From an uncultured Candidatus Saccharibacteria bacterium (lineage in GTDB: Bacteria; Patescibacteriota; Saccharimonadia; Saccharimonadales; Saccharimonadaceae), in contig CAZOYU010000002.1 in assembly GCA_964584145.1 (NCBI GenBank), forward strand, positions 19,956 through 83,955: a stretch of 64,000 nt of DNA. The letters run 5' to 3'. The position numbers and the translations under genes were made by a program. Under the pieces are notes generated by a model, which did no database searches, had not been told where the DNA came from, and saw nothing but the letters and a program-made list of their open reading frames with translations. Shown here piece by piece: positions 135 to 32,574 of this stretch (position 1 is its first letter; each line of letters starts with the position of its first letter).

Positions 135-155
135 AAAAAATAAATACCCTTTCAA

Positions 156-15184: not shown

Positions 15185-15582
15185 TTCATTCTGAAACCGA
15201 GATGCTCGAATATGGCCGCACGCTAGGCGCGAAACTCCAAGCTCCCGCTGTTTTAGAATTGCTTGGCGATGTGGGCGCCGGCAAAACTACACTCGTACGT
15301 GGTATTGCGCAGGGACTTGGTGTCAAGGAAGCCATCACTTCGCCTTCCTTTACTATCTCCAAAGAATATCTTGGCACTAACTATCGTCTCGTTCATTATG
15401 ATTTCTATCGTCTCGCCGACCCAGGCATCATGTCTGAAGACCTCGCCGAGGCTATTAATGACCCCAACGCTATCACGATTATTGAATGGGGCGACAGCAT
15501 TCAAAATGTCCTACCTAAACAACACCGTATCATCGAAATTAAATACATCGACGAGCAGACACGGGAGCTTACCGAAAAATGA
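15178..15582 (+). CDS. tsaE: tRNA t6A37 biosynthesis ATPase TsaE
   Basis: 134 aa. P-loop GDVGAGKTT, SPSFT and HYDFYRL motifs. Confidence 0.9.
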   Translation: MLIHSETEMLEYGRTLGAKLQAPAVLELLGDVGAGKTTLVRGIAQGLGVKEAITSPSFTISKEYLGTNYRLVHYDFYRLADPGIMSEDLAEAINDPNAITIIEWGDSIQNVLPKQHRIIEIKYIDEQTRELTEK

Positions 15583-15911
15583 AACTTTATCTCGACACCT
15601 CTACGCCAACCACTGTTCTGAAACTCGACGACCAGACCTACGAATGGGCATCTGGCCGTACGCTGGCGCGCGACTTACTTAAATTCATCCATGATAAACT
15701 CCAAGCTAATGGCAAAGATTGGCACGACCTTAGCGAGATTACTTTCATGTCTGGTCCAGGTAGTTTTACTGGTTTGCGTATTGGCGCCGTCGTTGTTAAT
15801 ACGCTCGCTAACGACCTCAAAATTCCGCTTTATAATCATCGTGGTGAACGCGTCGAGCTAATTCTGCCTGAATATGGCCGCCCCGCCAACATTACGCCGC
15901 CACGAAAATAA
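15579..15911 (+). CDS. tsaB: TsaB-like protein, N-terminal half only
   Basis: 110 aa. MKLYLDTST... and MSGPGSFTGLRIG match the TsaB N-domain. Overlaps the tsaE stop (ATGA). About half the usual TsaB length. Confidence 0.75.
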   Translation: MKLYLDTSTPTTVLKLDDQTYEWASGRTLARDLLKFIHDKLQANGKDWHDLSEITFMSGPGSFTGLRIGAVVVNTLANDLKIPLYNHRGERVELILPEYGRPANITPPRK

Positions 15912-17534: not shown

Positions 17535-17562
17535 AAAAGCTAGCGTTCTTCGCTAGCTTTTT
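17535..17562 (+). terminator. rho-independent terminator after rny
   Basis: AAAAGCTAGCGttcttCGCTAGCTTTT followed by a T run. Confidence 0.8.
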
Positions 17563-17576
17563 CAGCTCTGTTTTAG

Positions 17577-17582
17577 TATAAT
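17577..17582 (+). promoter_or_regulatory. -10 box (TATAAT) 7 nt upstream of the A1 ATG; possible leaderless start
   Basis: tagTATAATattaagcATG. No Shine-Dalgarno sequence between the box and the ATG. Confidence 0.45.
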
Positions 17583-17589
17583 ATTAAGC

Positions 17590-18342
17590 ATGAGCTCAAA
17601 TAATCACCAATCTATTAATGAGCCAAATCAAGCCCCCGCACCTGATGATGTGTCGCTTCTTACTCCACCGAGTAACGACATCTCATCTGCGGATTCCGAG
17701 GTGAAGTTCAAGAGCGAAGATATTTCTAAGAAAAAACATACTCATTTCTTCCTCCATGTCAAAGAAGATGAAGATTCCGCAAAGGCCGCCCTGCGCCAAG
17801 CCAAAGCTGATAAGCGTCGCCGCACCTGGCGCCGTCATTGGCTGAAATTTTCCCTTGCTGGTGTTCTTGCACTTGCCGTTTTGATTGGCGGCGGCATCTA
17901 TATTAAGCACGTTGTTGATACTAAGGTTCAAGAAACCGCCGAAGCTGAAGCACTAGAGATTACTATTGCCGCCACATCGGCTGCCGGTGACAAAATTGTT
18001 GAAATTCGTAATTTGATGTATTCTGGTTCGCCTACCGCTCTTGACGACGTTAGAGATGCCTACGAAGACGCCATTTCTAACTCTGACGATATTATAGAGC
18101 GTCGCACTTTGGAGATCAGCTATGTTGAATATCTAACTTTTTTTGAAAAGCGGTATGCTGAAGCGCTCGAAAAACTTAATGTTTATGTTGAGCAATATGA
18201 AGATAAGGACCAATGCATAATTATTAATAGCTACATTGATATTTACATTGGCCTCGAAGACACTGAAAACATTGAAAAATATGAGGAACTTCGCGCGCAA
18301 AAATGTGCTACGGGTGAAAGCGACAATGAAGACTATCTCTAA
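17590..18342 (+). CDS. cassette protein A1: bitopic membrane protein with disordered/basic cytoplasmic head, one TM helix and an acidic helical ectodomain
   Basis: 250 aa. Motifs KSEDISKK..HFFLHVKEDEDSAKAA, basic stretch KRRRTWRRHW, TM LAGVLALAVLIGGGIYI, then a helical Asp/Glu/Tyr-rich C-terminal domain. Same architecture as A2 and A3. Confidence 0.85.
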   Translation: MSSNNHQSINEPNQAPAPDDVSLLTPPSNDISSADSEVKFKSEDISKKKHTHFFLHVKEDEDSAKAALRQAKADKRRRTWRRHWLKFSLAGVLALAVLIGGGIYIKHVVDTKVQETAEAEALEITIAATSAAGDKIVEIRNLMYSGSPTALDDVRDAYEDAISNSDDIIERRTLEISYVEYLTFFEKRYAEALEKLNVYVEQYEDKDQCIIINSYIDIYIGLEDTENIEKYEELRAQKCATGESDNEDYL

Positions 18343-21300
18343 GTTTCCGAAGGTCGTTCGAGCGTTCGTTCTTGCGACGATTATCTGTGCGCTTTTTGCG
18401 CAGAATATCTTTGCGAGTGGGTGGGGGGATTATGGGGGTGGTGCCGGTGGCGGGAGCTGCGCACCGCAAAATGCTACTCTTTGGGAAGATACCTGCTTTG
18501 GCGGTGCATGGGAATACTATGAGTATGTCGATAATTATATAGGTGAAGTTACTACTTATAGCTACGGCAGGTATGCGACAGGTATGACAATTCCCAAAGT
18601 TTGCTCTGAAATTGGCGGTTTTTATAGTTTTGGTATGATTCCTTACAATAACAGATACACCAGTGTTTACGATAGGATACAGAATGCTAACTGGGGCGTT
18701 TATCCAAGTAAACAACAAATGGGCACACTGAGGAAAGTCGGAAGTGCCGTAATACCTTTTTTGCCATATGATCAGATAAAGAACATCAAATCGAATTCGG
18801 TTGCAAAAAAGGGGTCAGGGGAATTTAGGGGTTATTCAGGAACGGGATTAAGCTATAAAGAGACTGGCGCTAAGTCTACGGGATATGCGGACCCAGATCA
18901 GGTATCAAAGGACTTTGAGAAAGCGAAAGATGCTGGTGTTATAGAGAATGGCGTTACGAAGGAAAATGTTGCCGCCTTCTGCTATGGCCCAAATATGCCG
19001 GGGGGAAGTAAAGCCAGTACTTTCGATTCCAGCTCCAAAGCGACAGTTAGTGGCGCCAGTGTAACTACTGGCTGGTCTGGTTGGGATTCGAAAACTACCA
19101 CTTCATATACTACAACTAGCTCAAGTGTCACGCTTGATTTTGAACATAAATTACGCAGAGTAGGCACTGGTGACAATATTAGTAATGCGGTGAGTGTTGG
19201 CTGGACTATTAGTAGTGCTTATAGTGCTTCTGGCACCGCCAGCTGGCCAGCCAATGTTGCCGGCGAAAAGAGTAATATTGGCGGGAAAAGCGTCACGGTT
19301 AATATAGCGCGCGGCGAAACAAAAACTGTCTGCGCCACCATTACGCACGCCAGCAAGATTAGCGGCAATACATCGAGCGGCAGCGAGAGCTCTACTGCCT
19401 GCATTACAATCACCCGCGAAGGTGGCGGTAGTAGCACTTGTGAGACTGGCAGAGGCGCATACCATAACAACATCGGCAGCACTGGCGTCAGCAAAAATGG
19501 CGGAGACTTCTCCTTTTCTGGCGATAATCCTAATGGAGATTTTAGTCGAAGTAACGAATTCGGCAATTATGTTAGTCTGACTAGTATCTGGGCCAAACCG
19601 GGCGATTCTATTCAATTTATGCATAGGATTTGTGCCGGCGCACAGAGCGTCGTTGACGATCCGAAGTCCGATCTCGGCAGTAGTTACAATACCTCTTATG
19701 ATTTTTCTGCTATTACCGCTTTCGACGGTGGTGCAAATATTGACTATCTCTTCGGTAATACGCTCGGGCAGCGCAAGAATAGCATCTCCGCCTCCGAACT
19801 AGAAGGGGAAAATTACGAGCTAGCTATTAGTTCGCCTAGTGAGGGCGCCAATTATGGCTGTAATCAAATGTCTGGCTCATCGATTATCGGTTACTATCGT
19901 ATTCCGAGCCTTTCCCATAACAACAACTGTCGGTCCGCTTCCGCAACTAGGCTTTCCGATGCCGGCAATACTATTACTCAGACTATGTCCTGGAAAGATC
20001 TTCGGGCCAAAGTGACTAGACATCATGAGAGCTGGACGGATAGCGAAGGTCATCACCATAGTCGTACCTGGTATACCACGGACGTCGATAGCACGCATAA
20101 CGGTAGTCGTACCTTTACTTCCGCCGCCAGCGTCTATGTTCCTTACAACTACATCATTAAGCCTTATATCGTGAGAACGGACGAAAGTAATTCGATTGTC
20201 ACGCTGGGCGGCGAAATCTCGACCAACGTTTATCTCCCCGTCGATAAGCGCGAAAACAAGCAAGTTGGCGGGACCTATGCCACTCAAACTAAACCGACTA
20301 AGGTTAAGGTCATTTCCTACGTTGCCAGCTCATTAAATACGCCTACTTCCGAAATTAGCTACTACGTCGACACGAATGGCGTCGCCACCAATAATCTTTG
20401 CTCAAGAATCAAGGGTAATGGGAGCGATCGGACCGTCACTAGGACTTGCAGAGTTGTCAAAGAAGAATCTGACGTAATCCTTAACGAGAACCCTACCGGC
20501 AATCTTGATGGCACCTATTCTTCTTCCGATTCCAAAAACAATAACGTCAATGCTGGCGGTTCATACTATGGAAATATTTCTGCAACCGTCCCTGACGCCG
20601 GTGATGATAACTATAATATCGGCGATCACTTCTGCATTGCTGTTGCGACTTGGCCAGGCGACAGCCATAATAGTGGCGCAGCGTCGTCCATCAATAAATC
20701 CAATCAACAGGTCGCCCTCTCCGATGATGCTGGCTCCGGCGCTCAGTGGTCCATCTCGGCGCCAACTTGTGTCACAATCGCCAAGAATCCAACTTTCAGC
20801 GTTGAAGGCTCGCAATTAGCTACTACTGGCAATGTTAGCTCGTCGGTCTTCAATCGTAGCGGCAAATATTATTATAGTTCTTGGTCTGAATATGGCATTG
20901 TTGCCGCCGGAGCTGTCAATAATACGGCTTCTGGTGCGGCAACCACCTACATTAATGCACTTGGTCTTAAATCTTTCAACAACCCCAATTACACTATTGG
21001 TCTAAAAGAGACAAATCTTGCTAGCGTTAGCGCCGGTGCTCATAATGGTGGCGGTCAAATCTTTAACTCACAGACTATGTATAATAAAAATGTTAACAAA
21101 CCGGGTGGCGCTACTAATTTGGGCATTGGTGAAGATATTCGTGACTTCTATGAATCTATTAAGAATGTCTATACACGCAAAGCAGACGATGCGTACCGGG
21201 ACGAGGCTGGCGTAAAATCCTATAACGATATATATCGCGTAAAGAATTCGTGGGGGCGGTATGTTTCGCCTACCAAATATAATGGTTATTATGATATCAC

Positions 21301-22123
21301 GCCTAATGCGGCTTACGCTTGTAAATATGACGCCCAGAAGGGTTATTACGTTGTGGCCAGTGGAGATATGGCCCGCGCTACGAAAATAGATTCTAAGACC
21401 GGAAGAGAAGTTAATACTGCGCCATACTATTGTCTAGACAATGGCGCCAAGTATCACCATGTTGTTGGCAATGCTTATATTGGTAACGCTAACGATGATA
21501 GTATCGCAACTCAGCTTCGTCTCTTTGTTGACGACCTTAAGAGCGGTGACAGTCAAGAGACTTATCGCAACCAGACTATGGTCATTCATGTCGAGGGTAA
21601 ACTCGTAATTGACGCTAATTTTATAATCGCAAACTATTATAACGGCCAAGAAGCCGACCGCTTTACAGATATTCAGCAAATTCCGCAAATTATTATCATT
21701 GCTGACAGTATTGATATTACCGCCAACGTCACTCGTATTGATGCCTGGCTTATTGCGGACATTGATAATGGTACTATTAATACCTGTGCCTACGACAATT
21801 TTAACGGTTTTCGTAGTGGGCAATATATTAATAGCGTTGGCAAGAGTTCTACGCTCACTGCGAATAAATGCAGTCGCGAGCTAGTTATTAATGGCCCAGT
21901 CACGACTAAGAATCTCATCCTTAATCGCACTGCTGGTGCTGGCACTCAGCCTTCGCGATTCAACTACAGTGGCACCTCGCTTCAAGCCAACGATGCTTAT
22001 TATGTTCAGCGCGGCGAAATCTTTAATCTCCGCCCTGATGCATATCTTTGGGGGTACTACCAAGCCCAGCGCAACGGTATCATTACGACCGTCTATTCGC
22101 ACGAATATCCAACCCGTTATTAA
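18326..22123 (+). CDS. cassette protein B1: giant secreted protein (1265 aa), unknown family
   Basis: The ATG at 18326 gives a Sec-type signal peptide (MKTISKFPKVVRAFVLATIICALFAQNIFA/SG) and overlaps the A1 stop by 17 nt. The ORF-track start 18236 lies inside A1. Shares its C-terminal ~845 aa with B2 and B3. Confidence 0.9.
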   Translation: MKTISKFPKVVRAFVLATIICALFAQNIFASGWGDYGGGAGGGSCAPQNATLWEDTCFGGAWEYYEYVDNYIGEVTTYSYGRYATGMTIPKVCSEIGGFYSFGMIPYNNRYTSVYDRIQNANWGVYPSKQQMGTLRKVGSAVIPFLPYDQIKNIKSNSVAKKGSGEFRGYSGTGLSYKETGAKSTGYADPDQVSKDFEKAKDAGVIENGVTKENVAAFCYGPNMPGGSKASTFDSSSKATVSGASVTTGWSGWDSKTTTSYTTTSSSVTLDFEHKLRRVGTGDNISNAVSVGWTISSAYSASGTASWPANVAGEKSNIGGKSVTVNIARGETKTVCATITHASKISGNTSSGSESSTACITITREGGGSSTCETGRGAYHNNIGSTGVSKNGGDFSFSGDNPNGDFSRSNEFGNYVSLTSIWAKPGDSIQFMHRICAGAQSVVDDPKSDLGSSYNTSYDFSAITAFDGGANIDYLFGNTLGQRKNSISASELEGENYELAISSPSEGANYGCNQMSGSSIIGYYRIPSLSHNNNCRSASATRLSDAGNTITQTMSWKDLRAKVTRHHESWTDSEGHHHSRTWYTTDVDSTHNGSRTFTSAASVYVPYNYIIKPYIVRTDESNSIVTLGGEISTNVYLPVDKRENKQVGGTYATQTKPTKVKVISYVASSLNTPTSEISYYVDTNGVATNNLCSRIKGNGSDRTVTRTCRVVKEESDVILNENPTGNLDGTYSSSDSKNNNVNAGGSYYGNISATVPDAGDDNYNIGDHFCIAVATWPGDSHNSGAASSINKSNQQVALSDDAGSGAQWSISAPTCVTIAKNPTFSVEGSQLATTGNVSSSVFNRSGKYYYSSWSEYGIVAAGAVNNTASGAATTYINALGLKSFNNPNYTIGLKETNLASVSAGAHNGGGQIFNSQTMYNKNVNKPGGATNLGIGEDIRDFYESIKNVYTRKADDAYRDEAGVKSYNDIYRVKNSWGRYVSPTKYNGYYDITPNAAYACKYDAQKGYYVVASGDMARATKIDSKTGREVNTAPYYCLDNGAKYHHVVGNAYIGNANDDSIATQLRLFVDDLKSGDSQETYRNQTMVIHVEGKLVIDANFIIANYYNGQEADRFTDIQQIPQIIIIADSIDITANVTRIDAWLIADIDNGTINTCAYDNFNGFRSGQYINSVGKSSTLTANKCSRELVINGPVTTKNLILNRTAGAGTQPSRFNYSGTSLQANDAYYVQRGEIFNLRPDAYLWGYYQAQRNGIITTVYSHEYPTRY
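21557..22123 (+). repeat. paralogous C-terminal module of B1 (ETYRNQT ... EYPTRY)
   Basis: FTDIQQIPQIIIIADSIDITANVTRIDAWLIA ... QRGEIFNLRPDAYLWGYYQAQRNGIITTVYSHEYPTRY. Near-identical blocks occur in B2 and B3. Confidence 0.9.
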
Positions 22124-22148
22124 AAAATCACGAAATTTTGCTAAATAG

Positions 22149-22157
22149 TGCTAGTAT
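22149..22157 (+). promoter_or_regulatory. extended -10 (TGcTAGTAT) 6 nt upstream of the A2 ATG
   Basis: agTGcTAGTATataaacATG. No SD sequence and no terminator hairpin in the 40-nt B1-A2 spacer. Confidence 0.4.
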
Positions 22158-22163
22158 ATAAAC

Positions 22164-23249
22164 ATGAGCGAAAACGACTCAAGGCTTTTTGGCGAAGTTG
22201 ATTTTGATCCAACTGCAGCGTCTGACTCTCCCGCGACTCCCATTACCGATTCGCCGAATATTTCTAGTGCCGCTGACGAAGAGCGAAAACAAGAGGCTGC
22301 CGTCGATGCCGCGCGGCGCCGTACTGAAACTGTCGATATTGATAGCATTCCACTTGATAAAAAAGATGTGTATTTTAAAGCTGAAGATATTAAGAAACCG
22401 ACCGACGCAAGTTATTTTGTGAATGTTGAGGGTGAAGCGGAGCGTAAACGCGACGAAGCGCGTCGCGCTCGCGAACAAGCTGAACTTAAACGGCGCGCCG
22501 CCGCCGAAGATGCACAAAAGGCTGCTGCTAAGAAAAAAGCTGCGGAGCAGGCCGCTGCCCGCAAAGCTGCTGCCGAAAAGAAGGCCGCCGCTGCGACCGA
22601 CAAGCGTGTGCTAGGCGAACTTATGCGCAAGGCTCATGCTCGCAAAAAAGAAAATCGTCGCGTGCGTTTTCGTCGCCATCGGCAAAAGCTACGCGATCGC
22701 CTATTCAAAGGTGGCAATAAATTTATCACACTCGGCGCCACTCTCGCCGCCGCGGCATTGGTTCTAACTTTTGTCGTCATTCCGCTGCAACAAGCCGACG
22801 AGCGCCGTCAAGCCGACGAGCTTGCTCGACAGCAAGCTGCGGAATATGAACGGCGAAAAGAAACTGACGAATCGTTAATCGTTGAGGCAATTATAAATGA
22901 GGCTGATGAGCGTCTTGAATCGTATGATCTGGATGGCGCAGACGTTATTTACAATAATGCACTCGACAAGGCAACAAGCGATGAGTTGCGCTCTTATATC
23001 TACTTACATCGGTCACAGAAAATCTATCGGCTCATGTATGATTTGGAGCCAGAACGGGTCTACGAGGATGCTCTGAAAGCCTATGAATATGGACAAAAAT
23101 CTTATGAGGCTGTCAGTTGGTTGGCGTGGATTTATGAGTGTCGCAACGAAGATAATAAAGCTGCCGAGCTTCAGGGGCTACTTGAGCAAATCGTAAAAGA
23201 GCAAGCGAGCGAATCCTCTGAAAATAATACTGGAGAAGGACAAGGATAG
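22164..23249 (+). CDS. cassette protein A2: bitopic membrane protein with acidic head, long Ala/Lys/Arg coiled coil, TM helix and TPR-like ectodomain
   Basis: 361 aa. MSENDSRLFGEVDFD, VDIDSIPL, YFKAEDIKK, YFVNVEGE, about 60 aa of AEQAAARKAAAEKKAAA-type sequence, TM ITLGATLAAAALVLTFVVIPL, then a helical repeat domain (ALDKATSDELRSYIYLHRSQ...ALKAYEYGQKSYEAVSWLAWIY). Confidence 0.88.
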   Translation: MSENDSRLFGEVDFDPTAASDSPATPITDSPNISSAADEERKQEAAVDAARRRTETVDIDSIPLDKKDVYFKAEDIKKPTDASYFVNVEGEAERKRDEARRAREQAELKRRAAAEDAQKAAAKKKAAEQAAARKAAAEKKAAAATDKRVLGELMRKAHARKKENRRVRFRRHRQKLRDRLFKGGNKFITLGATLAAAALVLTFVVIPLQQADERRQADELARQQAAEYERRKETDESLIVEAIINEADERLESYDLDGADVIYNNALDKATSDELRSYIYLHRSQKIYRLMYDLEPERVYEDALKAYEYGQKSYEAVSWLAWIYECRNEDNKAAELQGLLEQIVKEQASESSENNTGEGQG

Positions 23250-23255
23250 TGCAAA

Positions 23256-26200
23256 ATGACGAATAACTTTTTAAGAGTGGTTGCGGTGGTCGCAACGATA
23301 ACTATATGCAGTCTTTTTCTGTGGACTGATAATGCTAATGCTGCAAGGACAAGCTGTGATAGTAGTAAAATATTTATCAATACAAGTTTGATTGCAAACT
23401 CGATTACGGACGCGAGCATTCAAGATATTGGCGCACTCGATGGTACCAGAGACTCGTCTATTGTTGGCACGGGCGCATGGGCGTGCGCTGAAACTAGCCG
23501 GGGAATTTTCTTTATTGCCGATAGTGTTGACCATGATGTGAATACCGGTAAATATATTATCAATCTTGATGTGAAAGTTAATCCAGAAAGTACGCGAAAC
23601 ACCGCGATTGCCATGGGCATGATTAACTATAAGCAAGAATCCGTAATCGATCAAAACGTTTATGCTATAAATATAAAATATTGTACCCAGGATTTTGAAT
23701 ATAGCTTCGTCTATGGTAAAGGCTATGATAACGTTGAATGTCCGGACGGGAGAGATGATGCGGGTGGCATAATAAATCAATATGGCTCAATTGTGCAGCG
23801 ACAAGGTGCCAATGATAATGTCTCAAGCGGGGCGTATGCCTATTGGTCGGAGCCTAAATATACATCCTCAACAATAAATGTTGATGGAACCGTTTTGAGT
23901 GCTAAATTAAATAATACTACTTTTAAACACGATAATGTCGTGAGGACTATTAATAATGGCAACACTTACGTAATAAAGTTATGGCAATGGCGCTGTTGGT
24001 CCTATGACATGTATAATTATAATAAATATAATAAAGATGCTTGCGCATCGAACCCGATTCTATTGGCAGTCGATATGAGTTGGAGTACGACTTTTGCCGG
24101 TAAGGTGGATAATATTAACGTCTCGGGCGCGAGCTATAATTCTTCTGACGGTAAATATTATACCGATAATGACGAGATTGATATTAAATATAACTATTAT
24201 CTTGCGAGAAATAATAATGGGCCAGACAAATCAGTGCAGGGGGGGTATACTACATATATATCATCCGGTGATGGCGCAAATGGCAATGTGAAATTATCAA
24301 AAAATTCTGGTTGGGCATGGGTGGCTTCTAGGACGGAGAGTGGACGTTCATTGAGTTATGGCGATAATACAATCTGCGGTAGAATTGGCTATTTTGTTAC
24401 AGTTAGTAGTGAAGGTGGCGGTAAAAATAAAGATTGGACCGAATCGTCAAAGTGTATTACTGTTCATAAATACAGTTGGTATGAATTTGAAGGTCAAGTC
24501 GTTCCATATGTTAATGATGTCTCAAAATCGAGCGGTAGCACCGTCTGGATTGACGGCAATTCTGCGAAGCTCAAGTTTGTACACCAACTTAAACGCACTG
24601 GCAGTGCCCAGACTCGCTACGGTACCAGCAAAAGCTCCAACTTGTCCAGTATTTTTAGTATTCAAAATTGGTATGGTACTTCTTCGTTAACTAACAATAA
24701 TAGTTGGCAGACGCAGAAAACTAGTGGCGATTCTGATTCTACTGTGAATATTGCTAAAAGCGATAGCGGATCTACCTATTGTCAATATCTGAAGTACTAT
24801 AAAACGGTACGCGATGATAGTAAAGATTTTAGAAACCAAGAAGAAAAGAGCGCCTGTGTCACCCTCAAACGTTATAAAACCAATTTTACTGGTAAGACTA
24901 CGGTTACTGTCAATGGCAAGGAATATAGTGATGGTGACACGATTACCGTTGAGAGTTCCGATGGTAAAATACCTGTGACCGTGCCGGTTGTCTTTAAGCA
25001 TACTGTTACGCGCAACTCTGAAAGCACGCCGCCATCCGCGCCAAGCAATAAAAAATCTAGTATCGCGATCTCGACTTCTGGCACTTCTGGCTGTCGTTCT
25101 GGCGATCCTTGCGGAACCAATACTAGTGCCGAGGATACCGACGAGCTCGCTTCTGGCGCCTCCTATACAAAGACACAGTCCATCAATACCAAAGTTTATC
25201 CAGACCAGACTATTAAAATCTGTCAACAAATGACCTACAAGAATCAAATTTGGGGCAGTAGCGAAAGCACTGCAACTGCCGACCAGGTCTGCGTTACGCT
25301 CAAGATGGATAAGGCGCTCTGCTCGGATAATACTCAATTTGGTATTCACGACGGTCAAAACCTCGGCTCGCTCAGTATTAGTAAAAATGTTAATAATAGC
25401 GACAGTAATACCGTCGTCAAATCTGGCGCCAAGAATACTGGCAGTACCGAAATAACAATGTGGGCTAAACCGGGTGACAATATCAGCTTCACGCACGATT
25501 CCTGTGCCGCCGCCGACTTGCCGAACCAGTTCCATAATAATGGCAAGACTACCACCTATAACGTCTCCGCCGGCCGCTCTAGCTCCTCCGGTTCGCTCGA
25601 CGCGACGGGTTATCTTTTTGGCAATAGTATCGGCTCCGAGCCATATACTAGCTCTTCTGCCACTATCGCTACTACCAACGCCAATTCCGGCACTGGACCA
25701 TTCAAGAGTGGCCAATATGCCGCGACTTATAAATCGCCAAGTACTAAATCCGACACCGACTATACTTGTACGACCGACTATTATGGTAATAGTCATCAAT
25801 CGAAAACTAATTATTATCAAATTACTTCTGATGTCGCCAAGACCAGTACGCTCACTAGCGCCCGCTGCAATTCTTACGTGAAAACTATTAATAATTCTAC
25901 GGACTATGCGATTGGCTCCAACGTCGGCACCTCTTTCTCGCAAACGCTTTCTTGGACCGACCTCTGGATTAGCAATGATTCTGTCGACAGTAGTCACAAC
26001 GGCTCTAAGACTGCCAGTATTAAAGGTACCGTTAGCGTGCCATACAATTACTACCTCTATCCGTATGTCGGCAATAATAGCACTAGCACTACTCAGACCG
26101 TCACTCCAGGGGCAAGCCTGAAAGCTAATGTTTACTTACCTGTCATGCAGCGCGAGAATAAGCAAGTTGGCGAAACTTATGCCACGCACACTAAGCCAAC

Positions 26201-28169
26201 CACTATTCGTGTCGTTTCTTTCATTATGCGTAGCGGTAGTCCGGCCAGCGACATTTCCTATACTAACGGCACCGAAACGCTTAACTATTCCAATATTTGT
26301 CGAATTGCCGCAGGTGGCAATAGTACGCTCAGTTGCACTATTCTCAATAACGGCGAAACGGATAACACTTACGAAAAACGCTATGTCTTAAATGCCTCGA
26401 CCAAAGACCAGCTAGGCGGCACGCTGAACGACACTAGCTTGATTACTTCTAGTGTCGCTGATACTAACGATAGCAATATTGTCTTGTCGCGTTCTGGATC
26501 AGTCGTGATGAATAGTGTTTCTGTTGATGTGCCGGAAACCACTATCAATAATCAGCAGGGCAGCCTTCGTCTTGGTGATAAGGTTTGTATCGCGGTTGCG
26601 GCTTGGCCAAGCGACAGCCATAACCTCGGCGCTGCTACCTCCGTCGACAGCACTAACCAATCTGTCGCGCTGACTAGCTCTGGCTCCGGCTCGCAATGGG
26701 TCGTTTCTGTGCCATACTGTTCGACGGTCGCCAAAACACCAAGCTTTAGCGTAGAAGGCTCGCAGCTTTCCGTTTCCGGCGATGTTACGACTTCTAATGT
26801 AACTCACAACGGTCGTCGCTACGGTTCATGGACAGAATATGGTTTGCTCGCTGGTGGCACAGTTACGAATATGACTTCAGGCGCTGCTACCGCTTATATT
26901 GATGCTCAATCGCTCGTTGTAACTAGTGGCACGGAATATGTTCTTAAATATAGCGCCGCTAACCGCACCGCTAGCGCTACTAAAGCAGGCGCCAATAGTA
27001 AAACGGCTAGTGTTTGCCTTTATAATTCGCAGACTTATCTCAAAGATTACGATTGTAATAATGCAGGTGGTGCGTCTACGATCGTGACCGAAGATAGTAT
27101 CAACGATATTCTTGAACGTATCCGCGATGTTTATACCCGCAAGAATAGTACTAGCAATTATCATGAAGAAGCGGGCGTCAAACGCATTAATGACCTTCAA
27201 TATGCTTGGGACTACGACGGCTCTAGGACTGATATCAAGATTGATGTTAATGGTAAATCTTACTACGACCTCTCGCCGCGCAATGCTTATGCTTGTGAAT
27301 ATAGCGAAGACCTCGGCTACTATGTCCCGAACAGCAAAGATGCCGAGCGTGCTATTACTACCGACGGCAAGAAAACTGCGCCATTTTACTGCCTCTCTAA
27401 CGGTGCCCATTATTACTATGTCGAAGGTGATGCCTATATTGGCGCGCAGAGCGATAGTATCTATGGTCAGTACCTCAACTTTGTTGATGACCTTACTGGT
27501 AGCTCCGATCAAGAAACTTATCGCAACCAGACCATGGTTGTACACGCTACTGGTACGCTCGTGATTGACACCAATCTTATTGTCGATAGTTACTATTCGG
27601 CTTACAACGGCTATCACCGCGTCGATCTCTTTACGGATATTCAGCAGATTCCGCAGATTATCATTATCGCCGACAAGATTCAAATCACCTCTAGCGTGTC
27701 CCGTATTGATGCTTGGCTAGTCGCGGATGGGCTCGACAGCGGCAATGGCGAGATTAATACCTGCGCCTACGAAAACTTTAATGCCTTTAAGCGCGGCGAA
27801 TATATCAAACAGGCGGGCAACGGTAGTCTCTTAAGCGCCAAGAATTGTGACCGCACGCTCATGTTTAATGGCCCAGTTTTCGCTAAGAGTATTATTCTGA
27901 ATCGCACTGCTGGTGGCGGTACTAAGGTGCTTGGCGCAGCCGAGCAATGGAATAGCTCTAGCGGTGGCGGTCATGGTCGCTATGACTGGTGGTATGGCCA
28001 TGTTCAGCAGAGTTCTGGCCAAACGCTCGCCATTGACGCAACCACTTATGCTCAGCGTGGCGAAATCTTCAACCTTCGTGCTGACACTTATCTTTGGGCC
28101 TACTATCAAGCTCAACGTAACGGCATTCTTACGACCGTCTTCACCAAAGAATTGCCAACGCGTTATTAG
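23256..28169 (+). CDS. cassette protein B2: giant secreted protein (1637 aa), unknown family
   Basis: Signal peptide MTNNFLRVVAVVATITICSLFLWTDNANA/A. Starts 6 nt after the A2 stop, with a GGAGAAGGA SD-like site inside the A2 3' end. N-domain shared with B3, three ~100-aa Cys-bracketed modules, then the common core. Confidence 0.92.
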   Translation: MTNNFLRVVAVVATITICSLFLWTDNANAARTSCDSSKIFINTSLIANSITDASIQDIGALDGTRDSSIVGTGAWACAETSRGIFFIADSVDHDVNTGKYIINLDVKVNPESTRNTAIAMGMINYKQESVIDQNVYAINIKYCTQDFEYSFVYGKGYDNVECPDGRDDAGGIINQYGSIVQRQGANDNVSSGAYAYWSEPKYTSSTINVDGTVLSAKLNNTTFKHDNVVRTINNGNTYVIKLWQWRCWSYDMYNYNKYNKDACASNPILLAVDMSWSTTFAGKVDNINVSGASYNSSDGKYYTDNDEIDIKYNYYLARNNNGPDKSVQGGYTTYISSGDGANGNVKLSKNSGWAWVASRTESGRSLSYGDNTICGRIGYFVTVSSEGGGKNKDWTESSKCITVHKYSWYEFEGQVVPYVNDVSKSSGSTVWIDGNSAKLKFVHQLKRTGSAQTRYGTSKSSNLSSIFSIQNWYGTSSLTNNNSWQTQKTSGDSDSTVNIAKSDSGSTYCQYLKYYKTVRDDSKDFRNQEEKSACVTLKRYKTNFTGKTTVTVNGKEYSDGDTITVESSDGKIPVTVPVVFKHTVTRNSESTPPSAPSNKKSSIAISTSGTSGCRSGDPCGTNTSAEDTDELASGASYTKTQSINTKVYPDQTIKICQQMTYKNQIWGSSESTATADQVCVTLKMDKALCSDNTQFGIHDGQNLGSLSISKNVNNSDSNTVVKSGAKNTGSTEITMWAKPGDNISFTHDSCAAADLPNQFHNNGKTTTYNVSAGRSSSSGSLDATGYLFGNSIGSEPYTSSSATIATTNANSGTGPFKSGQYAATYKSPSTKSDTDYTCTTDYYGNSHQSKTNYYQITSDVAKTSTLTSARCNSYVKTINNSTDYAIGSNVGTSFSQTLSWTDLWISNDSVDSSHNGSKTASIKGTVSVPYNYYLYPYVGNNSTSTTQTVTPGASLKANVYLPVMQRENKQVGETYATHTKPTTIRVVSFIMRSGSPASDISYTNGTETLNYSNICRIAAGGNSTLSCTILNNGETDNTYEKRYVLNASTKDQLGGTLNDTSLITSSVADTNDSNIVLSRSGSVVMNSVSVDVPETTINNQQGSLRLGDKVCIAVAAWPSDSHNLGAATSVDSTNQSVALTSSGSGSQWVVSVPYCSTVAKTPSFSVEGSQLSVSGDVTTSNVTHNGRRYGSWTEYGLLAGGTVTNMTSGAATAYIDAQSLVVTSGTEYVLKYSAANRTASATKAGANSKTASVCLYNSQTYLKDYDCNNAGGASTIVTEDSINDILERIRDVYTRKNSTSNYHEEAGVKRINDLQYAWDYDGSRTDIKIDVNGKSYYDLSPRNAYACEYSEDLGYYVPNSKDAERAITTDGKKTAPFYCLSNGAHYYYVEGDAYIGAQSDSIYGQYLNFVDDLTGSSDQETYRNQTMVVHATGTLVIDTNLIVDSYYSAYNGYHRVDLFTDIQQIPQIIIIADKIQITSSVSRIDAWLVADGLDSGNGEINTCAYENFNAFKRGEYIKQAGNGSLLSAKNCDRTLMFNGPVFAKSIILNRTAGGGTKVLGAAEQWNSSSGGGHGRYDWWYGHVQQSSGQTLAIDATTYAQRGEIFNLRADTYLWAYYQAQRNGILTTVFTKELPTRY
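27513..28169 (+). repeat. paralogous C-terminal module of B2 (ETYRNQT ... ELPTRY)
   Basis: FTDIQQIPQIIIIADKIQITSSVSRIDAWLVA ... QRGEIFNLRADTYLWAYYQAQRNGILTTVFTKELPTRY. Confidence 0.9.
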
Positions 28170-28204
28170 CGATTAACCCTCTCAGAGAGGCTAACCAAAA
28201 TTCC

Positions 28205-28235
28205 AAAAAGCTAGCATTTTTTCGCTAGCTTTTTT
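28205..28235 (+). terminator. rho-independent terminator after B2
   Basis: AAAAAGCTAGCattttttcGCTAGCTTTTT. Sequence-related to the rny terminator at 17535-17562. Confidence 0.8.
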
Positions 28236-28248
28236 AGTTCGATTTCAG

Positions 28249-28254
28249 TAAGAT
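28249..28254 (+). promoter_or_regulatory. -10-like box (TAAGAT) 6 nt upstream of the A3 ATG
   Basis: cagTAAGATataagcATG. No SD sequence. Confidence 0.4.
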
Positions 28255-28260
28255 ATAAGC

Positions 28261-29052
28261 ATGAGCGCCAATGATTCTCGGCCTTTTGGCGAGGTGAATC
28301 CAGATTCTTCCACAGATTCCTCTGCGGATTCTCCACATTTTGTTTCCCCGAATATTACTGATGCTGCCGAAGAGGAGCAAAAGGCGCAGGCGCAAGCCGC
28401 CGCCGAGCAGAGGCAAGCCGAAACTGTGAATATTGATGGTGTTCCGATTGCTGATCAGGATATTCAATACAAAACGCGCGATATTGTTGCTAAGAAAGCT
28501 GATGCGAAATATTTCGTGAATGTTAAGGAAGAGGAGGATGCTGCGAAAGCGCAGGCGCATCAAGCTAAAGCGGCTCAGCACAAAACTCGTTGGCGTCGCT
28601 ATGGCCGCCCAATTTTGGTTGTCGCTATTGTTCTTATTCTCGCTGCTGCTGGCGGTTTTGTCGCAAGATATTTTCTCGATCGGCAGGACGAAGAGGCAAA
28701 AGCGGCTGTTGAGGAATTGCTCTATGAAGCGGCTGATTGTTTAGAGGCGTCCAATCTCGATTGTGCGAATGAATACTATGAGAAGGCGCTCAGTCGTGCG
28801 GCGACGGATGAAGAGCGTTCGTTTGTCTATCTTCATTACTCTCAGTCCCTCGATGGGCTTATGCGTGATCAAGAATCAAATCGAATATATGAGTATGCGC
28901 TCAAGGCCTATGAGTTGAATCCTAATGACCGCAGTATAGTTTGGTGGCTTGTTGATGTTTATAATAATCGCGGCGAGGAAGATAAAGCGAAGGAATTTGA
29001 AGAGAAGCTAGAAGCATTGCCGGTAGATGAAGATGAATATGGAGAAGGGTGA
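28261..29052 (+). CDS. cassette protein A3: bitopic membrane protein, paralog of A2
   Basis: 263 aa. MSANDSRPFGEVNPD, VNIDGVPI, YKTRDIVAKK, YFVNVKEEED, RWRRYGRP + TM ILVVAIVLILAAAGGFV, then a TPR-like ectodomain (YYEKALSRAATDEERSFVYLHYSQ...ALKAYELNPNDRSIVWWLVDVY). Confidence 0.88.
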   Translation: MSANDSRPFGEVNPDSSTDSSADSPHFVSPNITDAAEEEQKAQAQAAAEQRQAETVNIDGVPIADQDIQYKTRDIVAKKADAKYFVNVKEEEDAAKAQAHQAKAAQHKTRWRRYGRPILVVAIVLILAAAGGFVARYFLDRQDEEAKAAVEELLYEAADCLEASNLDCANEYYEKALSRAATDEERSFVYLHYSQSLDGLMRDQESNRIYEYALKAYELNPNDRSIVWWLVDVYNNRGEEDKAKEFEEKLEALPVDEDEYGEG

Positions 29053-29053
29053 A

Positions 29054-32000
29054 ATGAAGATTAAAATAAAGACCGTTGCCTTGATTGCTATCGTTGCTAT
29101 TTTTTCTACGACGCTTTTGGGGTTTGGTAAAAATGAAGCTTATGCGAAGGCCTGGACTCTGTCTAGATCTAACGATAGGGGTAATTGTCTAACTGGCGGT
29201 GGCCGTATTGATGTTGTTTCTAAAGCGAAGAAAAACGGCAAAACAGTAATCAGAGATATTGGTGACTTGGGCAATTTTGGTCAATTGGGTAATGAGAATA
29301 AATACGATGAATATAGTGGCGGTTGGGCATGCGCACGATGGTACGAAACGGGGAATATGTGGCATGGAATTATGTTCATAGCTAGCAGTGTCGAGGAGAC
29401 CGGAAGCGGGAATAATAAACAGTACAAAATCAACGTCGATGTCAGTGTTAATTTGAAAAGTAGCAATAACACGGCAATTGCTATGGGCATGGTTCATACT
29501 GGTAGCAATGCAACGAATAAGGCTATAAATATCGAGTATTGTACGCATTATTATGCTAATACAGGGTGGTGCACGGATAAGACTAAAGGTGCAGATGGTA
29601 TTATATCTAGTTACGACAAAACCGTGCTTCGGCAGAACTCACGCAACCGGCCAACTAGTAGCTATAGTTACTGGACCCCGCCAATTCACGCGTTAGCGAC
29701 CAGTTCGGAGCAATCATTTATAACAATTGATGGTCCAAGGCTTGCTGAAAAAATGCAAGAAACGGAGTTTGCTACAAAGAACGTTAAATATTTAGATGAC
29801 GGTTATACCGCAATCGTGCTTTATCAATACCGCTGCTGGTCGAAGAATGGTGGCACTGGAGAATGTGGCGTAAGTCCGATAGTTTTAATATTGGACACTA
29901 GCGGTACGACTGATGATCCTCCAAGCTCAACTTCTTGCGACTCCACGAACTCATATAGCAATAGCGGTAAATCCGGCGTCCGTAAAAACGGTGGCAGCAT
30001 CGCTTATACGAATAATAATTCTGGCACAGTTAGTACTTGGGCGAAACCAGGAGATTCTATTCAATTTACGCACACAACTTGTGCTGCCGCCCAAAAGCTT
30101 ATTGATGACAATCAGGCGTATCTGGGTTCTTATGATTCTAACTATACCGTTTCTGCAAGTACCACCAACGGCACCAATGGCAGAGGCTATATATTTGGTA
30201 ACGACTTGAGCGGTAACTCGTCCGCTAGTATCCCAAGTTCCACGCTAAAGAATAATGAGTATGCTTATACTGCGAATTCGCCGAGCGATGACGCTGGATC
30301 TACATATAGCTGCGATGGTGTTTACGATGGTTTCATATCGGGCCATTATCAGATTCCGGATTTGAATATTAGGAGTGACAAATGTGGGGCATCTAGGAAA
30401 ACTGTTGCGTCTGATGCTGGCAATACAATTACGCAAACATTAGCATGGCGCGACTTCGACATTAAATGGCAGACTATCTATCATGACGCCGAAATAGATG
30501 AGGCGGGCAACGTTATTAAGCCGAGAACATCTGAAAATATCCCTTATGTAAATAGTTCTACCGACTACTCCACTAGCGCCAGCGTCTATATTCCATACAA
30601 CTACATTCTCAAGCCCTATATTGAAGGAAATAAAAATGACACAGGGGATAAAAGCCAAACCGCTACCATCGGTGGCAAATACGACGTTACTGCTTATGTT
30701 CCCGTTGATGTTCGTAAAAATAAACAAGTTGGTGATACTTATGCTACTAGCACGAAAGATACCAAAATTAAAATTGTGTCGTTCGTATTGGATTCTAGTA
30801 GCCAGCCAACCAGTAGCGTTACTTATCACGCTAATAATGGCGATGCGGGGGCGAGCAGTATTTGTAGATACGCCGCTGCCAGCGGAAATGTTAAGCATTG
30901 TGCAAATATCGCCGATGAGACTATTACGCTTAACCAAAATACTTCCGGTAATCTCAGCGGCACGCTAGGCAATGAAGCTTCGATTAGTGAGGGTGGTTCT
31001 AAGCTTGTTCTTAATGACGGCATCGAGGCTTCTGTACCAAAAAATAACATCAGTCTCGGCGATAAAATTTGTGTCGCAGTCGCCACCTGGCCGAGCGATA
31101 GCCATAATCTTGGCGATGCTGCAACTGTCGATAGCTATGACCAGAGTGTTGCTCTCACTAATAGTGCGGGAAGTAACGCTAAATGGGCCGTCTCTGCGCC
31201 AAGCTGCGCCACCATCACGAAGCGCCCAATCTTTAGCGTCGAAAGTTCGCAACTTTCCGCTACTGGCACAATTAACTCCTCGACCTATACGCGTGATAAG
31301 CTCACCTTCAGCTCTTGGGCAGAATATAGCATTGCCACCTCTGAGGAAAATGGCGTTGAAGATACCGCTTCCGGCGCAGCTACTGCCTATATCGACGCGC
31401 TCAATCTTAATTATCGCTATAATCCTTACGAGCCTAAATACGCCATTGCTTCCAGGGAAGTTAATCTTGCCAATACGCGTGCTGGCACAAAAAGTACCAG
31501 AACCTTTACTGCGCAAACTATGCTCAATTCTGGTAATGGCAGCCCCGGTGGCGCTACCACGCTTGAGCTCGCTGAGAATATCGAAAAATTCTATACATCT
31601 ATCGAAAATATCTATACGCGCAAAGGCAAGACTAAGACTCAATCTGGTGCCGGTATTGCAAATTTCAATGACCTTAGCGAACTAAAAGGCTCCAAAAAAC
31701 TAACCGTCAAGAATAATTATTATGATCTCTCGATTGGGTCCTCGTATGCTTGCGTTTACGATGAAAATAAAGGTTATTATGTCGCCTATGATAGCGACGC
31801 TACGCTCGGCAAGGATAAAAAAGGCAACCCAACTGCGCCATATTATTGTCTAAGCAATGGCTCCAAGTATTATCATGTCGAGAATGCTAATGCTTATATT
31901 GGTGGTGGCGGCGAGAGAAATAGTGGCGGCTATACTCAATTTCGTCTTACTGTGAACGATCTTGATGGTTCTGGCGGTCAAGAAACTTTCCGCAACCAAA

Positions 32001-32536
32001 CTACGGTTATTCATGTTGAGGGTACGGTTGTAATTGATACTAACTTCGTCATTGCCTATAACTATGGTGGTAGGATGCTGGATTATTTCACTGATATTCA
32101 GCAGATTCCGCAAGTTATCATCATTGCCGACAATATCGATATTACTAACAATGTCTCGCGCATCGATGCATGGCTGATTGCTAAAAACAAGATTAATACT
32201 TGTGCCTACGATAACTATAGTGGCTTCATGAAAGGGAACTATATCAGTAGCGCGGCTAATGGCGGCCTAAACGCGAACCGCTGCAATAAAGAACTAGTTA
32301 TCAATGGCCCAGTCGTTGCTAATGAGATCACACTTAACCGTACCGCTGGCGCCGGCACAACTCCGGCCGAATACTACAGTAAAAAAGCCTCTCTCTCCGT
32401 CGAAGATGCCTATTATGCCCAACGCGGCGAAATCTTTAATCTCCGTTCCGACGCCTATCTTTGGGGTTATTATCAAGCTCAGCGTAATGGCATTTTGACT
32501 ACAGTCTATTCGAAAGAATTGCCGACCAGATATTAA
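29054..32536 (+). CDS. cassette protein B3: giant secreted protein (1160 aa), unknown family
   Basis: The ATG at 29054 lies 1 nt after the A3 stop, preceded by GGAGAAGGG. It gives signal peptide MKIKIKTVALIAIVAIFSTTLLGFGKNEAYA/K. N-domain shared with B2, followed directly by the common core. Confidence 0.9.
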   Translation: MKIKIKTVALIAIVAIFSTTLLGFGKNEAYAKAWTLSRSNDRGNCLTGGGRIDVVSKAKKNGKTVIRDIGDLGNFGQLGNENKYDEYSGGWACARWYETGNMWHGIMFIASSVEETGSGNNKQYKINVDVSVNLKSSNNTAIAMGMVHTGSNATNKAINIEYCTHYYANTGWCTDKTKGADGIISSYDKTVLRQNSRNRPTSSYSYWTPPIHALATSSEQSFITIDGPRLAEKMQETEFATKNVKYLDDGYTAIVLYQYRCWSKNGGTGECGVSPIVLILDTSGTTDDPPSSTSCDSTNSYSNSGKSGVRKNGGSIAYTNNNSGTVSTWAKPGDSIQFTHTTCAAAQKLIDDNQAYLGSYDSNYTVSASTTNGTNGRGYIFGNDLSGNSSASIPSSTLKNNEYAYTANSPSDDAGSTYSCDGVYDGFISGHYQIPDLNIRSDKCGASRKTVASDAGNTITQTLAWRDFDIKWQTIYHDAEIDEAGNVIKPRTSENIPYVNSSTDYSTSASVYIPYNYILKPYIEGNKNDTGDKSQTATIGGKYDVTAYVPVDVRKNKQVGDTYATSTKDTKIKIVSFVLDSSSQPTSSVTYHANNGDAGASSICRYAAASGNVKHCANIADETITLNQNTSGNLSGTLGNEASISEGGSKLVLNDGIEASVPKNNISLGDKICVAVATWPSDSHNLGDAATVDSYDQSVALTNSAGSNAKWAVSAPSCATITKRPIFSVESSQLSATGTINSSTYTRDKLTFSSWAEYSIATSEENGVEDTASGAATAYIDALNLNYRYNPYEPKYAIASREVNLANTRAGTKSTRTFTAQTMLNSGNGSPGGATTLELAENIEKFYTSIENIYTRKGKTKTQSGAGIANFNDLSELKGSKKLTVKNNYYDLSIGSSYACVYDENKGYYVAYDSDATLGKDKKGNPTAPYYCLSNGSKYYHVENANAYIGGGGERNSGGYTQFRLTVNDLDGSGGQETFRNQTTVIHVEGTVVIDTNFVIAYNYGGRMLDYFTDIQQIPQVIIIADNIDITNNVSRIDAWLIAKNKINTCAYDNYSGFMKGNYISSAANGGLNANRCNKELVINGPVVANEITLNRTAGAGTTPAEYYSKKASLSVEDAYYAQRGEIFNLRSDAYLWGYYQAQRNGILTTVYSKELPTRY
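31982..32536 (+). repeat. paralogous C-terminal module of B3 (ETFRNQT ... ELPTRY)
   Basis: FTDIQQIPQVIIIADNIDITNNVSRIDAWLIA ... QRGEIFNLRSDAYLWGYYQAQRNGILTTVYSKELPTRY. Confidence 0.9.
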
Positions 32537-32566: not shown

Positions 32567-32574
32567 TGTATAAT
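32567..32574 (+). promoter_or_regulatory. extended -10 (TGTATAAT) 6 nt upstream of the pseudopilin-1 ATG at 32581
   Basis: aaTGTATAATattactATGagtaaa. No SD sequence. The alternative ATG at 32566 lies inside the box itself. Confidence 0.45.

Follow-up and report, generated by a model that had tools for sequence, protein, structure and literature searches.

Tandem A-B gene cassettes beside minor-pilin-like genes in a Saccharibacteria contig: a candidate pilus-associated adhesin module

Why does a Saccharibacteria contig carry three tandem copies of a two-gene cassette, each encoding a membrane protein (A) and a giant exported protein (B), directly upstream of four pilin-like genes? The cassettes lie in a 64,000-nucleotide (nt) stretch, hereafter the window, from an uncultured Candidatus Saccharibacteria bacterium (GenBank assembly GCA_964584145.1, contig CAZOYU010000002.1, positions 19,956 to 83,955 of the forward strand; all coordinates below are those of the window). 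The original prediction, made from the letters of the sequence, had treated the array as a cell-surface module that ends at position 32536. The unit does not end there. It continues through four pilin-like genes to 36799, so that the first reading missed the type IV pilus (T4P) minor-pilin set directly downstream, which is the most informative context of the array and whose linkage to it recurs in distant relatives. In Saccharibacteria, T4P have been implicated in host recognition, and the adhesin has not been established (PMC11623550, PMC10633639). By analogy with the PilY1/minor-pilin module, we give about an even chance to the reading that the locus is a swappable, pilus-associated accessory module, a non-homologous counterpart of that system in which B would be the adhesin and A its tether or loader. 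From its gene content, an A/B locus next to T4P tip genes is a strong candidate for the means by which the epibiont grips its host bacteria.

The cassettes and the pilin-like genes downstream

All six A and B open reading frames (ORFs) were recovered on the + strand in the three pairs that had been described. A1 (17590-18342) encodes a bitopic membrane protein of 250 amino acids (aa) and B1 (18326-22123) an exported protein of 1265 aa; A2 (22164-23249) and A3 (28261-29052) encode bitopic partners of 361 and 263 aa, and B2 (23256-28169) and B3 (29054-32536) exported proteins of 1637 and 1160 aa. The junctions, when re-measured, were a 17-nt overlap (A1/B1), a 6-nt gap (A2/B2), and a 1-nt gap (A3/B3), and the Shine-Dalgarno (SD)-like site GGAGAAGG was located within the 3' ends of A2 (23232-23239) and A3 (29041-29048), in agreement with the earlier description. 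A mechanical ORF call opens B1 at the TTG at 18236; the start is most plausibly the ATG at 18326, because the signal peptide follows directly from it.

The similarities among the copies bear out the proposal of a paralog-expanded module. B1 and B3 are 46% identical over 917 aa (E = 0), B2 and B3 are 38% identical over 1052 aa and 32% identical over the N-terminal 300 aa, and A2 and A3 match at 43-47% identity in two blocks (E 2e-21). These values are far above chance; the similarity between A1 and A3 is weak (32%, E 3e-8). Because paralogous DNA matches only in short stretches (64-87% identical and at most 151 nt long), the cassette duplications are judged to be old and not homogenised. Recent gene conversion between cassettes was considered as well and is ruled out by the same identities and lengths.

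Four prepilin-like genes follow B3 on the + strand: P1 (32581-33549), P2 (33540-34364), P3 (34364-35227), and P4 (35237-36799). The likely start of P1 is 32581, with a TATAAT box just 5' of it (32569-32574), and the listed ORF start at 32566 is probably wrong; from B3 to P1 the distance is 44 nt, without a hairpin. The N-termini of P1 (ASG↓FTIIEVML), P2 (KPG↓DTIIEVAL), and P3 (KKA↓FTIIEFVL) follow the class III signal pattern, as G↓FTIIE, G↓DTIIE, and A↓FTIIE (arrows mark cleavage sites). P4, the largest at 520 aa, has an N-terminal hydrophobic helix and lacks Glu5 (KRG↓AASMYVVIFTAML; G↓AASMY). The same signal patterns are present at related loci. P1 had weak matches to Pfam N_methyl (E 6e-4) and NCBIfam GspH (E 1.2e-3), P2 matched NCBIfam gspI (E 1.2e-4), and P3 matched N_methyl (E 3.6e-3), all with scores below the curated cut-offs (GspH, 18.9 bits against 80; GspI, 22.6 against 44; N_methyl, 17-20 against 21.2). 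A profile of P3 homologues matched the PDB weakly, and at pilin N-termini only. P4 found no support in Pfam or NCBIfam, and its profile matched no PDB pilin.

Core minor pilins, GspH-I-J-K in type II secretion systems (T2SS) and FimU-PilV-W-X in T4P, prime and cap type IV filaments (PMC7541494). The order and features of P1-P4 appear to match this set: the first three have Glu5, and the last and largest does not, so that both the missing Glu5 and the final position of P4 resemble GspK/PilX. The likeness to GspH-I-J-K is bounded by the scores under cut-off and by the lack of a secretin or any other T2SS-specific gene among those found. P1-P4 (274-520 aa) are also larger than typical Gsp pseudopilins.

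In a fold scan, hairpin terminators on the + strand were found after the upstream RNase Y gene (17535-17561; -15.5 kcal/mol, z -4.8), after B2 (28205-28234; -14.1 kcal/mol, z -5.6, with 0 of 200 shuffles as good), and, as a strong terminator, after P4 (36811-36841; -15.2 kcal/mol, z -4.3); none was found between B1 and A2 or between B3 and P1. Two transcription units are therefore predicted, A1-B1-A2-B2 and A3-B3-P1-P2-P3-P4. The 3' half of the RNase Y terminator and the -10-like box TATAAT at 17577-17582 form a terminator-promoter module that is duplicated upstream of A3 (17546-17584 versus 28218-28256, 79% identity; repeat D8). TATAAT-like boxes lie 6-8 nt 5' of the ATG of A1 (17577-17582), A2 (about 22150-22158), A3 (about 28247-28254), and P1 (32569-32574), and the starts of these four genes each read ATGAG. 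The closeness of the boxes suggests near-leaderless transcripts for A1, A2, A3, and P1. Long antisense ORFs of up to 436 aa occur inside B2 (for example 24687-25997 and 26877-27683, both on the minus strand), and others occur within the B genes; those wholly antisense to the conserved B2 frame are probably not genes.

Linkage to pilus genes and the partnership of A and B in related loci

We surveyed 43 related loci (L numbers below), of which 14 came from reference genomes, 4 from homologue-encoding contigs, and 25 from metagenomes. The informative set (n = 37) consists of the window and 36 of these 43 loci. B was next to a P1-P4-like pilin set in 21 of the 37 (the window and 20 others), and the set was mostly directly downstream; in L017, it was located 2.3 kb upstream of B. 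In L012 (683-7477), a B homologue lies directly upstream of pilM, pilN-like, pilO-like, pilB, pilT, and pilC genes, a complete operon confirmed by the Pfam matches PilM_2, T2SSE (twice), and T2SSF. In total, B was linked to T4P genes in 22 of 37 loci, representing about 12 flanking contexts and B identities down to 25-30%. The linkage survives changes of the other flank and of the T4P partner genes.

In one clade (L009:12583-13023, L010:17955-18413, L011:11823-12293; also L025-L028 and L030), a conserved protein of 146-156 aa with a single transmembrane segment is encoded between B and the first pilin; it has the motif NYDYSKGR, was not matched by Pfam, and does not occur in the window. In L016, on a Saccharibacteria-like contig, the A-B pair has just upstream of it a gene (1-5831) that exceeds 3,200 codons and weakly matches MucBP, a second kind of giant surface protein beside A-B.

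An A-like gene with a single transmembrane segment abutted every B gene for which upstream DNA was available, or was fused to it, the latter in three loci; the adjacency that the original prediction had proposed to survey thus holds among relatives. Across 31 A/B junctions, the gap ranged from -29 to +6 nt, with -4 (ATGA) the commonest, and a purine-rich, GGAGG-like SD was found inside the A 3' end, in keeping with the proposed translational coupling and pairwise co-production. The recurrent C-termini of A (GEG, GKG, or GRG) are explained by this embedded SD. In the upstream proteins of distant loci, homology to A was recognisable only in the last helical hairpin (hhalign 83% probability, E 9e-6).

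Each A has a cytoplasmic N-terminus, a basic stretch, one transmembrane segment, and a helical, acidic ectodomain. The cytoplasmic part carries a motif with the consensus (F/Y)-x-(S/T)-x-(D/N)-I, 6-8 residues, (F/Y)-F-x-x-(V/I/L). In A1, this motif reads VKFKSEDISKKKHTHFFLHV and the transmembrane segment spans about residues 87-105; A2 has a long K/E/A-rich cytoplasmic linker and its transmembrane segment at about residues 188-206; in A3, the motif occupies residues 56-89 (nt 28426-28527), the transmembrane segment residues 117-136 (nt 28609-28668), and the helical ectodomain residues 137-263, the final codons of which encode the SD of B3 (GGAGAAGG). The earlier label of a bitopic protein resembling tetratricopeptide repeats (TPR) stands as to the single transmembrane segment; its second half has sub-threshold matches behind it. 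In Pfam, the ectodomain matched TPR_19 (E 0.76), ARM_TT21 (E 0.014), and DUF4919 (E 0.005) below cut-off, and the A profile matched a bacterial kinesin-light-chain TPR (E 0.06) and IFT88 (E 0.12) weakly in the PDB. A TPR-like ectodomain is plausible on these matches.

In three loci, A and B are naturally fused into proteins of 1683-1761 aa (L023:798-5849; L038:2134-7311; L029:943-6228, minus strand). These loci have no separate A, and the B ORF opens with the A cytoplasmic motif and transmembrane segment (A profile E 6.5e-7). Minor pilin genes are still found downstream of the fusion in L023 and L038. The fusions join the motif and transmembrane segment of A to B and so speak for A as a membrane tether of B. 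The A ectodomain and the N-terminal region of B are contiguous in them, which suggests that the two also lie side by side in the complex. The proposed division of labour, with A as the membrane partner and B as the exposed part, fits these fusions and the export signal of B. A SurA/PpiD-like chaperone domain was suspected after the transmembrane segment of the fusions; Pfam found nothing, and the candidate was dropped.

The fusions also bear on the chief rival explanation, which is essentially the model of the original prediction: A-B would be a self-contained, membrane-anchored adhesin or fibril that works independently of the pilus, and its proximity to pilins would reflect co-regulation or the clustering of host-contact genes. 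We consider this a real possibility that is, on balance, doubtful. In its favour, B is a type II membrane protein in the fusions, about six genomic contexts hold A-B pairs by themselves, every A gene is preceded by a -10-like box of its own, B2 is followed by a terminator, and the middle of B has the immunoglobulin (Ig)-like stalk architecture of cell-wall adhesins. Against this explanation, B stays by T4P genes in about 12 contexts while the other flank changes, one of these contexts being an assembly ATPase operon, and B3 runs to P1 without a terminator. Furthermore, the most conserved part of B is its membrane-distal C-terminus with the invariant tail, which points to a conserved bacterial partner and not to a variable host ligand.

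The pilus-associated reading has its own difficulties. Fifteen of the 37 informative loci, in about six contexts, hold A-B without a T4P gene nearby, and because common ancestry links many of the loci in the survey, the linkage counts lack phylogenetic independence. For the cultured S. epibionticum, the published gene table places the minor-pilin cluster between murB and glyA and lists no B-like gene next to it, and therefore B is not a universal T4P component; the same table has no B-like gene beside RNase Y. The terminator after B2 cuts cassettes 1 and 2 off from the pilin genes. A fused B is anchored in the membrane by its N-terminus and could not ride on a pilus tip unless it were cleaved. 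The assignment of P1-P4 to H, I, J, and K consists of motifs, gene order, and sub-threshold hidden Markov model matches. Lastly, the model of the B C-terminal domain had no significant PDB neighbour in a Foldseek search and is not the β-propeller of PilY1.

Anatomy, family and divergence of protein B

We read a Sec-type signal peptide heuristically in every B of the window, with a basic n-region, a hydrophobic core, and an A-x-A-like site (FA↓S, ANA↓A, and AYA↓K); that of B1 is MKTISKFPKVVRAFVLATIICALFAQNIFA↓S. A hydrophobic segment is present at the N-terminus of every full-length B homologue, and the GFxxxE motif in none of them. The claim that B contains no known sorting signal was thus mistaken: all three copies have the signal peptide, and they share a near-invariant tail ending in ELPTRY. 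This end is not an LPXTG sorting signal, as it runs to the stop codon without the Gly, a transmembrane segment, or a basic tail.

B3 is composed of the signal peptide (residues 1-31), a hypervariable head (about 32-300), a conserved β-rich middle (300-840), a conserved C-terminal domain (841-1146; nt 31574-32491), and the near-invariant tail ILTTVYSKELPTRY (nt 32492-32533), which is predicted to be disordered. In B1, the head spans about residues 31-370 and is unrelated to those of B2 and B3, while the C-terminal 850 aa or so are conserved. B2 has a head of about residues 30-690, which shares 32% identity with the B3 head over its first 280 aa, and again a conserved C-terminal part. A BLAST search found no internal repeats in this long head. 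The C-terminal end follows the pattern YLW(G/A)YxQAQR...TTYx(R/K)E(L/Y)PxRY-stop, and the last residues are almost invariant even in relatives at 25-30% identity, with the variants ELAPRY, EIPPRY, and EYPTRY. Each B has 18-29 cysteines, ten of which are invariant across the family, and G, A, S, and T make up 38% of its residues. These features describe B as a disulfide-rich, mostly β, exported protein of extracellular, adhesin-like build.

At 41162-42700, about 4 kb past P4, lies a gene for a membrane glycosyltransferase of the PMT_2 family (protein O-mannosyltransferase-like). In L009 (17283-18941), L011 (16618-18228), L013 (15629-17167), L027 (15284-16942), and L030 (15284-16942), P4 is directly followed by an ORF of comparable length (512-552 aa) that encodes many transmembrane segments. 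The PMT_2-like transferase might glycosylate the Ser/Thr-rich B or the pilins.

Single sequences and profiles of A and B were both used as queries against Pfam, NCBIfam, PADLOC, PHROGs, and the PDB sequences. Neither protein had a match at curated thresholds, as the original prediction had anticipated in recognising no described family. PHROGs and PADLOC gave zero matches for all six proteins, a negative result for phage and anti-phage defence functions. In an exhaustive profile search with a trimmed-alignment profile, the B family comprised 2,766 representative clusters (defined at 50% identity) at E <= 1e-3 and 721 at E <= 1e-30. Typical members measure 1,000-2,000 aa, and the match runs along the last 850 residues or so; where the source databases name them, the name is "hypothetical protein". 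A word-index protein search recovered at least 11 full-length relatives of B, also with a 16-sequence profile, with low-complexity words saturating the candidate list, and the C-terminal 230 aa alone recovered 39 further fragments. A and B are two new protein families, and the combination of A and B is undescribed. A/B-like genes are not mentioned in two studies of Saccharibacteria T4P (PMC11623550 and PMC10633639), and text searches of an incomplete collection of papers for a Saccharibacteria pilus tip adhesin or large surface protein found none; an earlier description elsewhere is possible.

The AlphaFold2 (AF2) model of full-length B3 was of moderate quality and almost wholly β (mean predicted local distance difference test score, pLDDT, 67; predicted template modelling score, pTM, 0.49), and its middle was modelled as a string of Ig-like β-sandwich domains. 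In a Foldseek search of the PDB, this model had weak matches (E 5e-6 to 1e-3, template modelling (TM) score <= 0.2, 8-10% identity) to the Ig-like stalks of Gram-positive adhesins and pilins; the stalks matched were those of AgI/II C123, CfaE/CfaB, and RrgB. Against viral models, it matched generic Ig strings only. The C-terminal 321 residues of B3, modelled alone from 48 sequences, gave a pLDDT of 78 and a pTM of 0.82. The top matches of this domain, all non-significant, were β-solenoids, the first being Thermus ComZ (E 0.6). The conserved 14-residue tail was predicted to be disordered in both AF2 models. We read it as a partner-binding motif because it is near-invariant yet predicted to be disordered; the models fit a peptide that folds on a partner, and the tail is a possible docking element.

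That B carries no wall-anchoring signal (it ends in PTRY and has no transmembrane segment there) is also what a secreted cargo would show. In this rival explanation, P1-P4 would form a T2SS-like pseudopilus, B would be Sec-exported cargo that is pushed through the wall or S-layer and released, and A would be a membrane-bound targeting chaperone. The weak GspH and GspI matches of P1 and P2 point in this direction, as do faint matches of A3 and A2 to the NCBIfam profiles GspL (20.7 bits, cut-off 65) and GspM (14.5 bits, cut-off 60), and the conserved C-terminal module of B could act as a secretion signal. We consider it improbable. The GspL/GspM scores (15-21 bits against cut-offs of 60-65) come from the transmembrane region only, the window encodes no secretin, and the natural fusions would leave the cargo anchored in the membrane. 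An outer membrane or a secretin is not known from Saccharibacteria, which also counts against it. In addition, no catalytic or toxin domain was found by Pfam or NCBIfam in the B proteins of the window or in five distant homologues.

The three cassettes and the pilin set are all shared with the closest relative, L002 (68% identical), which dates the array to before the two species separated. Between the window and L002, identities were 87-90% for P1-P4, 88-93% for RNase H, 67-71% for B, and 57-73% for A. The divergence of B is concentrated in the heads: identity is 23-35% over residues 1-600 of B2 and 1-300 of B3 (pN/pS, the ratio of nonsynonymous to synonymous differences per site, 0.5-0.8), whereas it is 76-94% over the rest of B (pN/pS 0.06-0.24). 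Synonymous sites are saturated (pS 0.57-0.70), and only the relative pattern of pN/pS was used. On this pattern, the evolution of the heads is relaxed or diversifying, which falls short of proof of positive selection. The suggestion that B is the diversifying component was well founded, in that its N-terminal part diverges much faster than the neighbouring genes.

The heads and bodies of B have different histories. L019 and L024 are alike in their heads and have diverged in their bodies; between the window B2 and its orthologue in L002 it is the other way round. A mosaic is seen in the L002 orthologue of A3 (L002:9199-9993): its first 197 residues or so are 64% identical to A3, and its last 65 or so are A1-like. 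Together, these histories indicate modular recombination of A and B parts. The window has at least two unrelated head types (B1 versus B2/B3). Relatives carry one to three copies per locus, and swapped heads are seen among close relatives. A comparison of the A ectodomain with the B head for co-variation gave no clear signal (Spearman 0.42, against 0.30 for the conserved part of B), with one clear counter-example and with DNA adjacency as a confounding factor.

This variation also bears on the explanation that B is a structural envelope protein, an S-layer or wall coat with a wall-binding C-terminal part and A as assembly factor, without a dedicated function in the pilus or in host contact. 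In favour of this, the family is large and widely distributed (the 2,766 clusters above), B is rich in G, A, S, T, and N, and a gene with an SLH domain adjoins A-B in L017. However, copy numbers of one to three and head swaps among close relatives are atypical of a coat protein, and Pfam and NCBIfam detected no SLH, CWB, LysM, or other wall-binding domain in B. The linkage to T4P genes would also be left unexplained. We give this explanation only a slight chance.

Under the pilus-associated reading, A would hold B at the membrane after export, through the A ectodomain and the B N-terminal region, and would position it at the site of pilus assembly. The conserved C-terminal domain of B and its tail would then dock onto the P1-P4 complex, and B, displayed on the pilus or next to it, would serve to bind the host, like PilY1/PilC in proteobacteria. 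Three cassettes with at least two unrelated head types would provide alternative specificities on one shared pilin set.

Comparison with known systems and neighbouring genes

With the core minor pilins FimU-PilV-PilW-PilX, PilY1/PilC makes up the priming and tip complex of type IVa pili in P. aeruginosa, Neisseria, and M. xanthus. PilY1 has a poorly conserved N-terminus and a conserved C-terminus, and its gene is clustered with minor pilin genes, in three such clusters in M. xanthus (PMC7541494). B resembles PilY1/PilC in having a type I (Sec) signal peptide and not being a pilin, in its variable N-terminus and conserved C-terminus (window versus L002), in being encoded beside four minor pilins, and in occurring as several paralogous copies. 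Neisseria likewise has the paralogous PilC1 and PilC2. The two differ in that neither B1-B3 nor five distant homologues had a Pfam or NCBIfam match to the PilY1 (Neisseria_PilC) domain, and PilY1 was not among the Foldseek matches. B also precedes the pilin genes, whereas the PilY1 gene follows them; and its obligatory bitopic partner A, which is sometimes fused to it, has no counterpart in the PilY1 system. The organism differs as well, since an outer membrane or a secretin is not known from Saccharibacteria. Because the defining propeller domain was tested for and is absent, B falls outside the PilY1 family; it is an analogue of PilY1 and not a homologue.

Within the same phylum, PilX1 and PilX2 of Nanosynbacter lyticus TM7x have been proposed as T4P tip adhesins; they are encoded with minor pilins and are pilin-like, with an N-terminal helix and a jelly-roll or RCC1 propeller domain (PMC11623550). 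B shares with them the proposed host-binding role in T4P and the minor-pilin neighbours. In contrast, B is a non-pilin of 1160-1637 aa with a Sec signal and the partner A. The match that ranked first for the B C-terminal domain in Foldseek was Thermus thermophilus ComZ, a tip protein of a T4P (the competence pilus) with a large β-solenoid; the match is non-significant (E 0.6, probability 0.15, TM scores 0.25/0.17) and ComZ is itself a pilin, so we treat it as a lead only. The stalks of antigen I/II, CfaE/CfaB, and RrgB resemble the Ig-like string in the middle of B (E 5e-6 to 1e-3), whereas TM scores of at most 0.2 and identities of 8-10% set them apart, and B has neither LPXTG nor a Pfam match.

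For A, the nearest parallels are TPR-containing T4P factors (the pilotins PilF, PilW, and Tgl) and carboxylate-clamp receptors, through the sub-threshold TPR-like matches of its ectodomain. TPR clamps bind free C-terminal peptides, and B has an invariant one. That the TPR-like ectodomain of A might bind the tail of B is pure conjecture by analogy. Pilotins differ from A in being lipoproteins that act on the secretin; A is bitopic with a cytoplasmic domain, and no TPR model matched it at threshold.

We also considered a more far-reaching version of the pilus-associated reading, which we advance tentatively and think unlikely as a whole. A-B would be a pilus accessory of a new class, restricted to Saccharibacteria (or possibly, more broadly, to Patescibacteria), a "cartridge" system in which recombining heads set or switch the host range. 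A would reach the T4P machine through its cytoplasmic motif and hand B to a shared minor-pilin tip, where B would dock through its new C-terminal fold and invariant C-terminal peptide. If this were true, the epibiotic lifestyle would have in A-B its missing determinant of host specificity, and the problem that PilY1 solves would have been solved independently a second time in evolution. The broader pilus-associated reading, if true, would make B a non-homologous counterpart of PilY1 with an extra membrane partner. Linkage to pilus-tip genes, heads that change fast and recombine, and a copy number of one to three at each locus make up the profile expected of a host-specificity determinant. Saccharibacteria are now genetically manipulable, so the idea of a pilus adhesin is directly testable. 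For annotation, an operon signature is provided by A and B genes whose stop and start codons overlap, together with the four prepilin genes after them.

Four further features of the window were recorded. At 4242-6645, recA and recX adjoin a PRC-barrel gene; the same trio lies inside T4P locus 2 of TM7x and S. epibionticum, and no pilMNO or pilBC genes flank it within the window. At 61049-62083, a 344-aa protein has a sub-threshold T4SS_pilin match (PF18895, E 1.5e-5, 25.4 bits against a cut-off of 26.6) and may belong to the type IV secretion locus of Saccharibacteria described for S. epibionticum. An ORF of the TsaB/TsaD family at 15579-15911 encodes 110 aa that match positions 27-85 of the 264 in the TsaD profile; a truncation or a wrongly called start may account for this. 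On the minus strand, at 55752-57293, a MurA-like enolpyruvyl transferase carries an N-terminal HTH_3 domain, and the same fusion is annotated in S. epibionticum as SEML1_0687.

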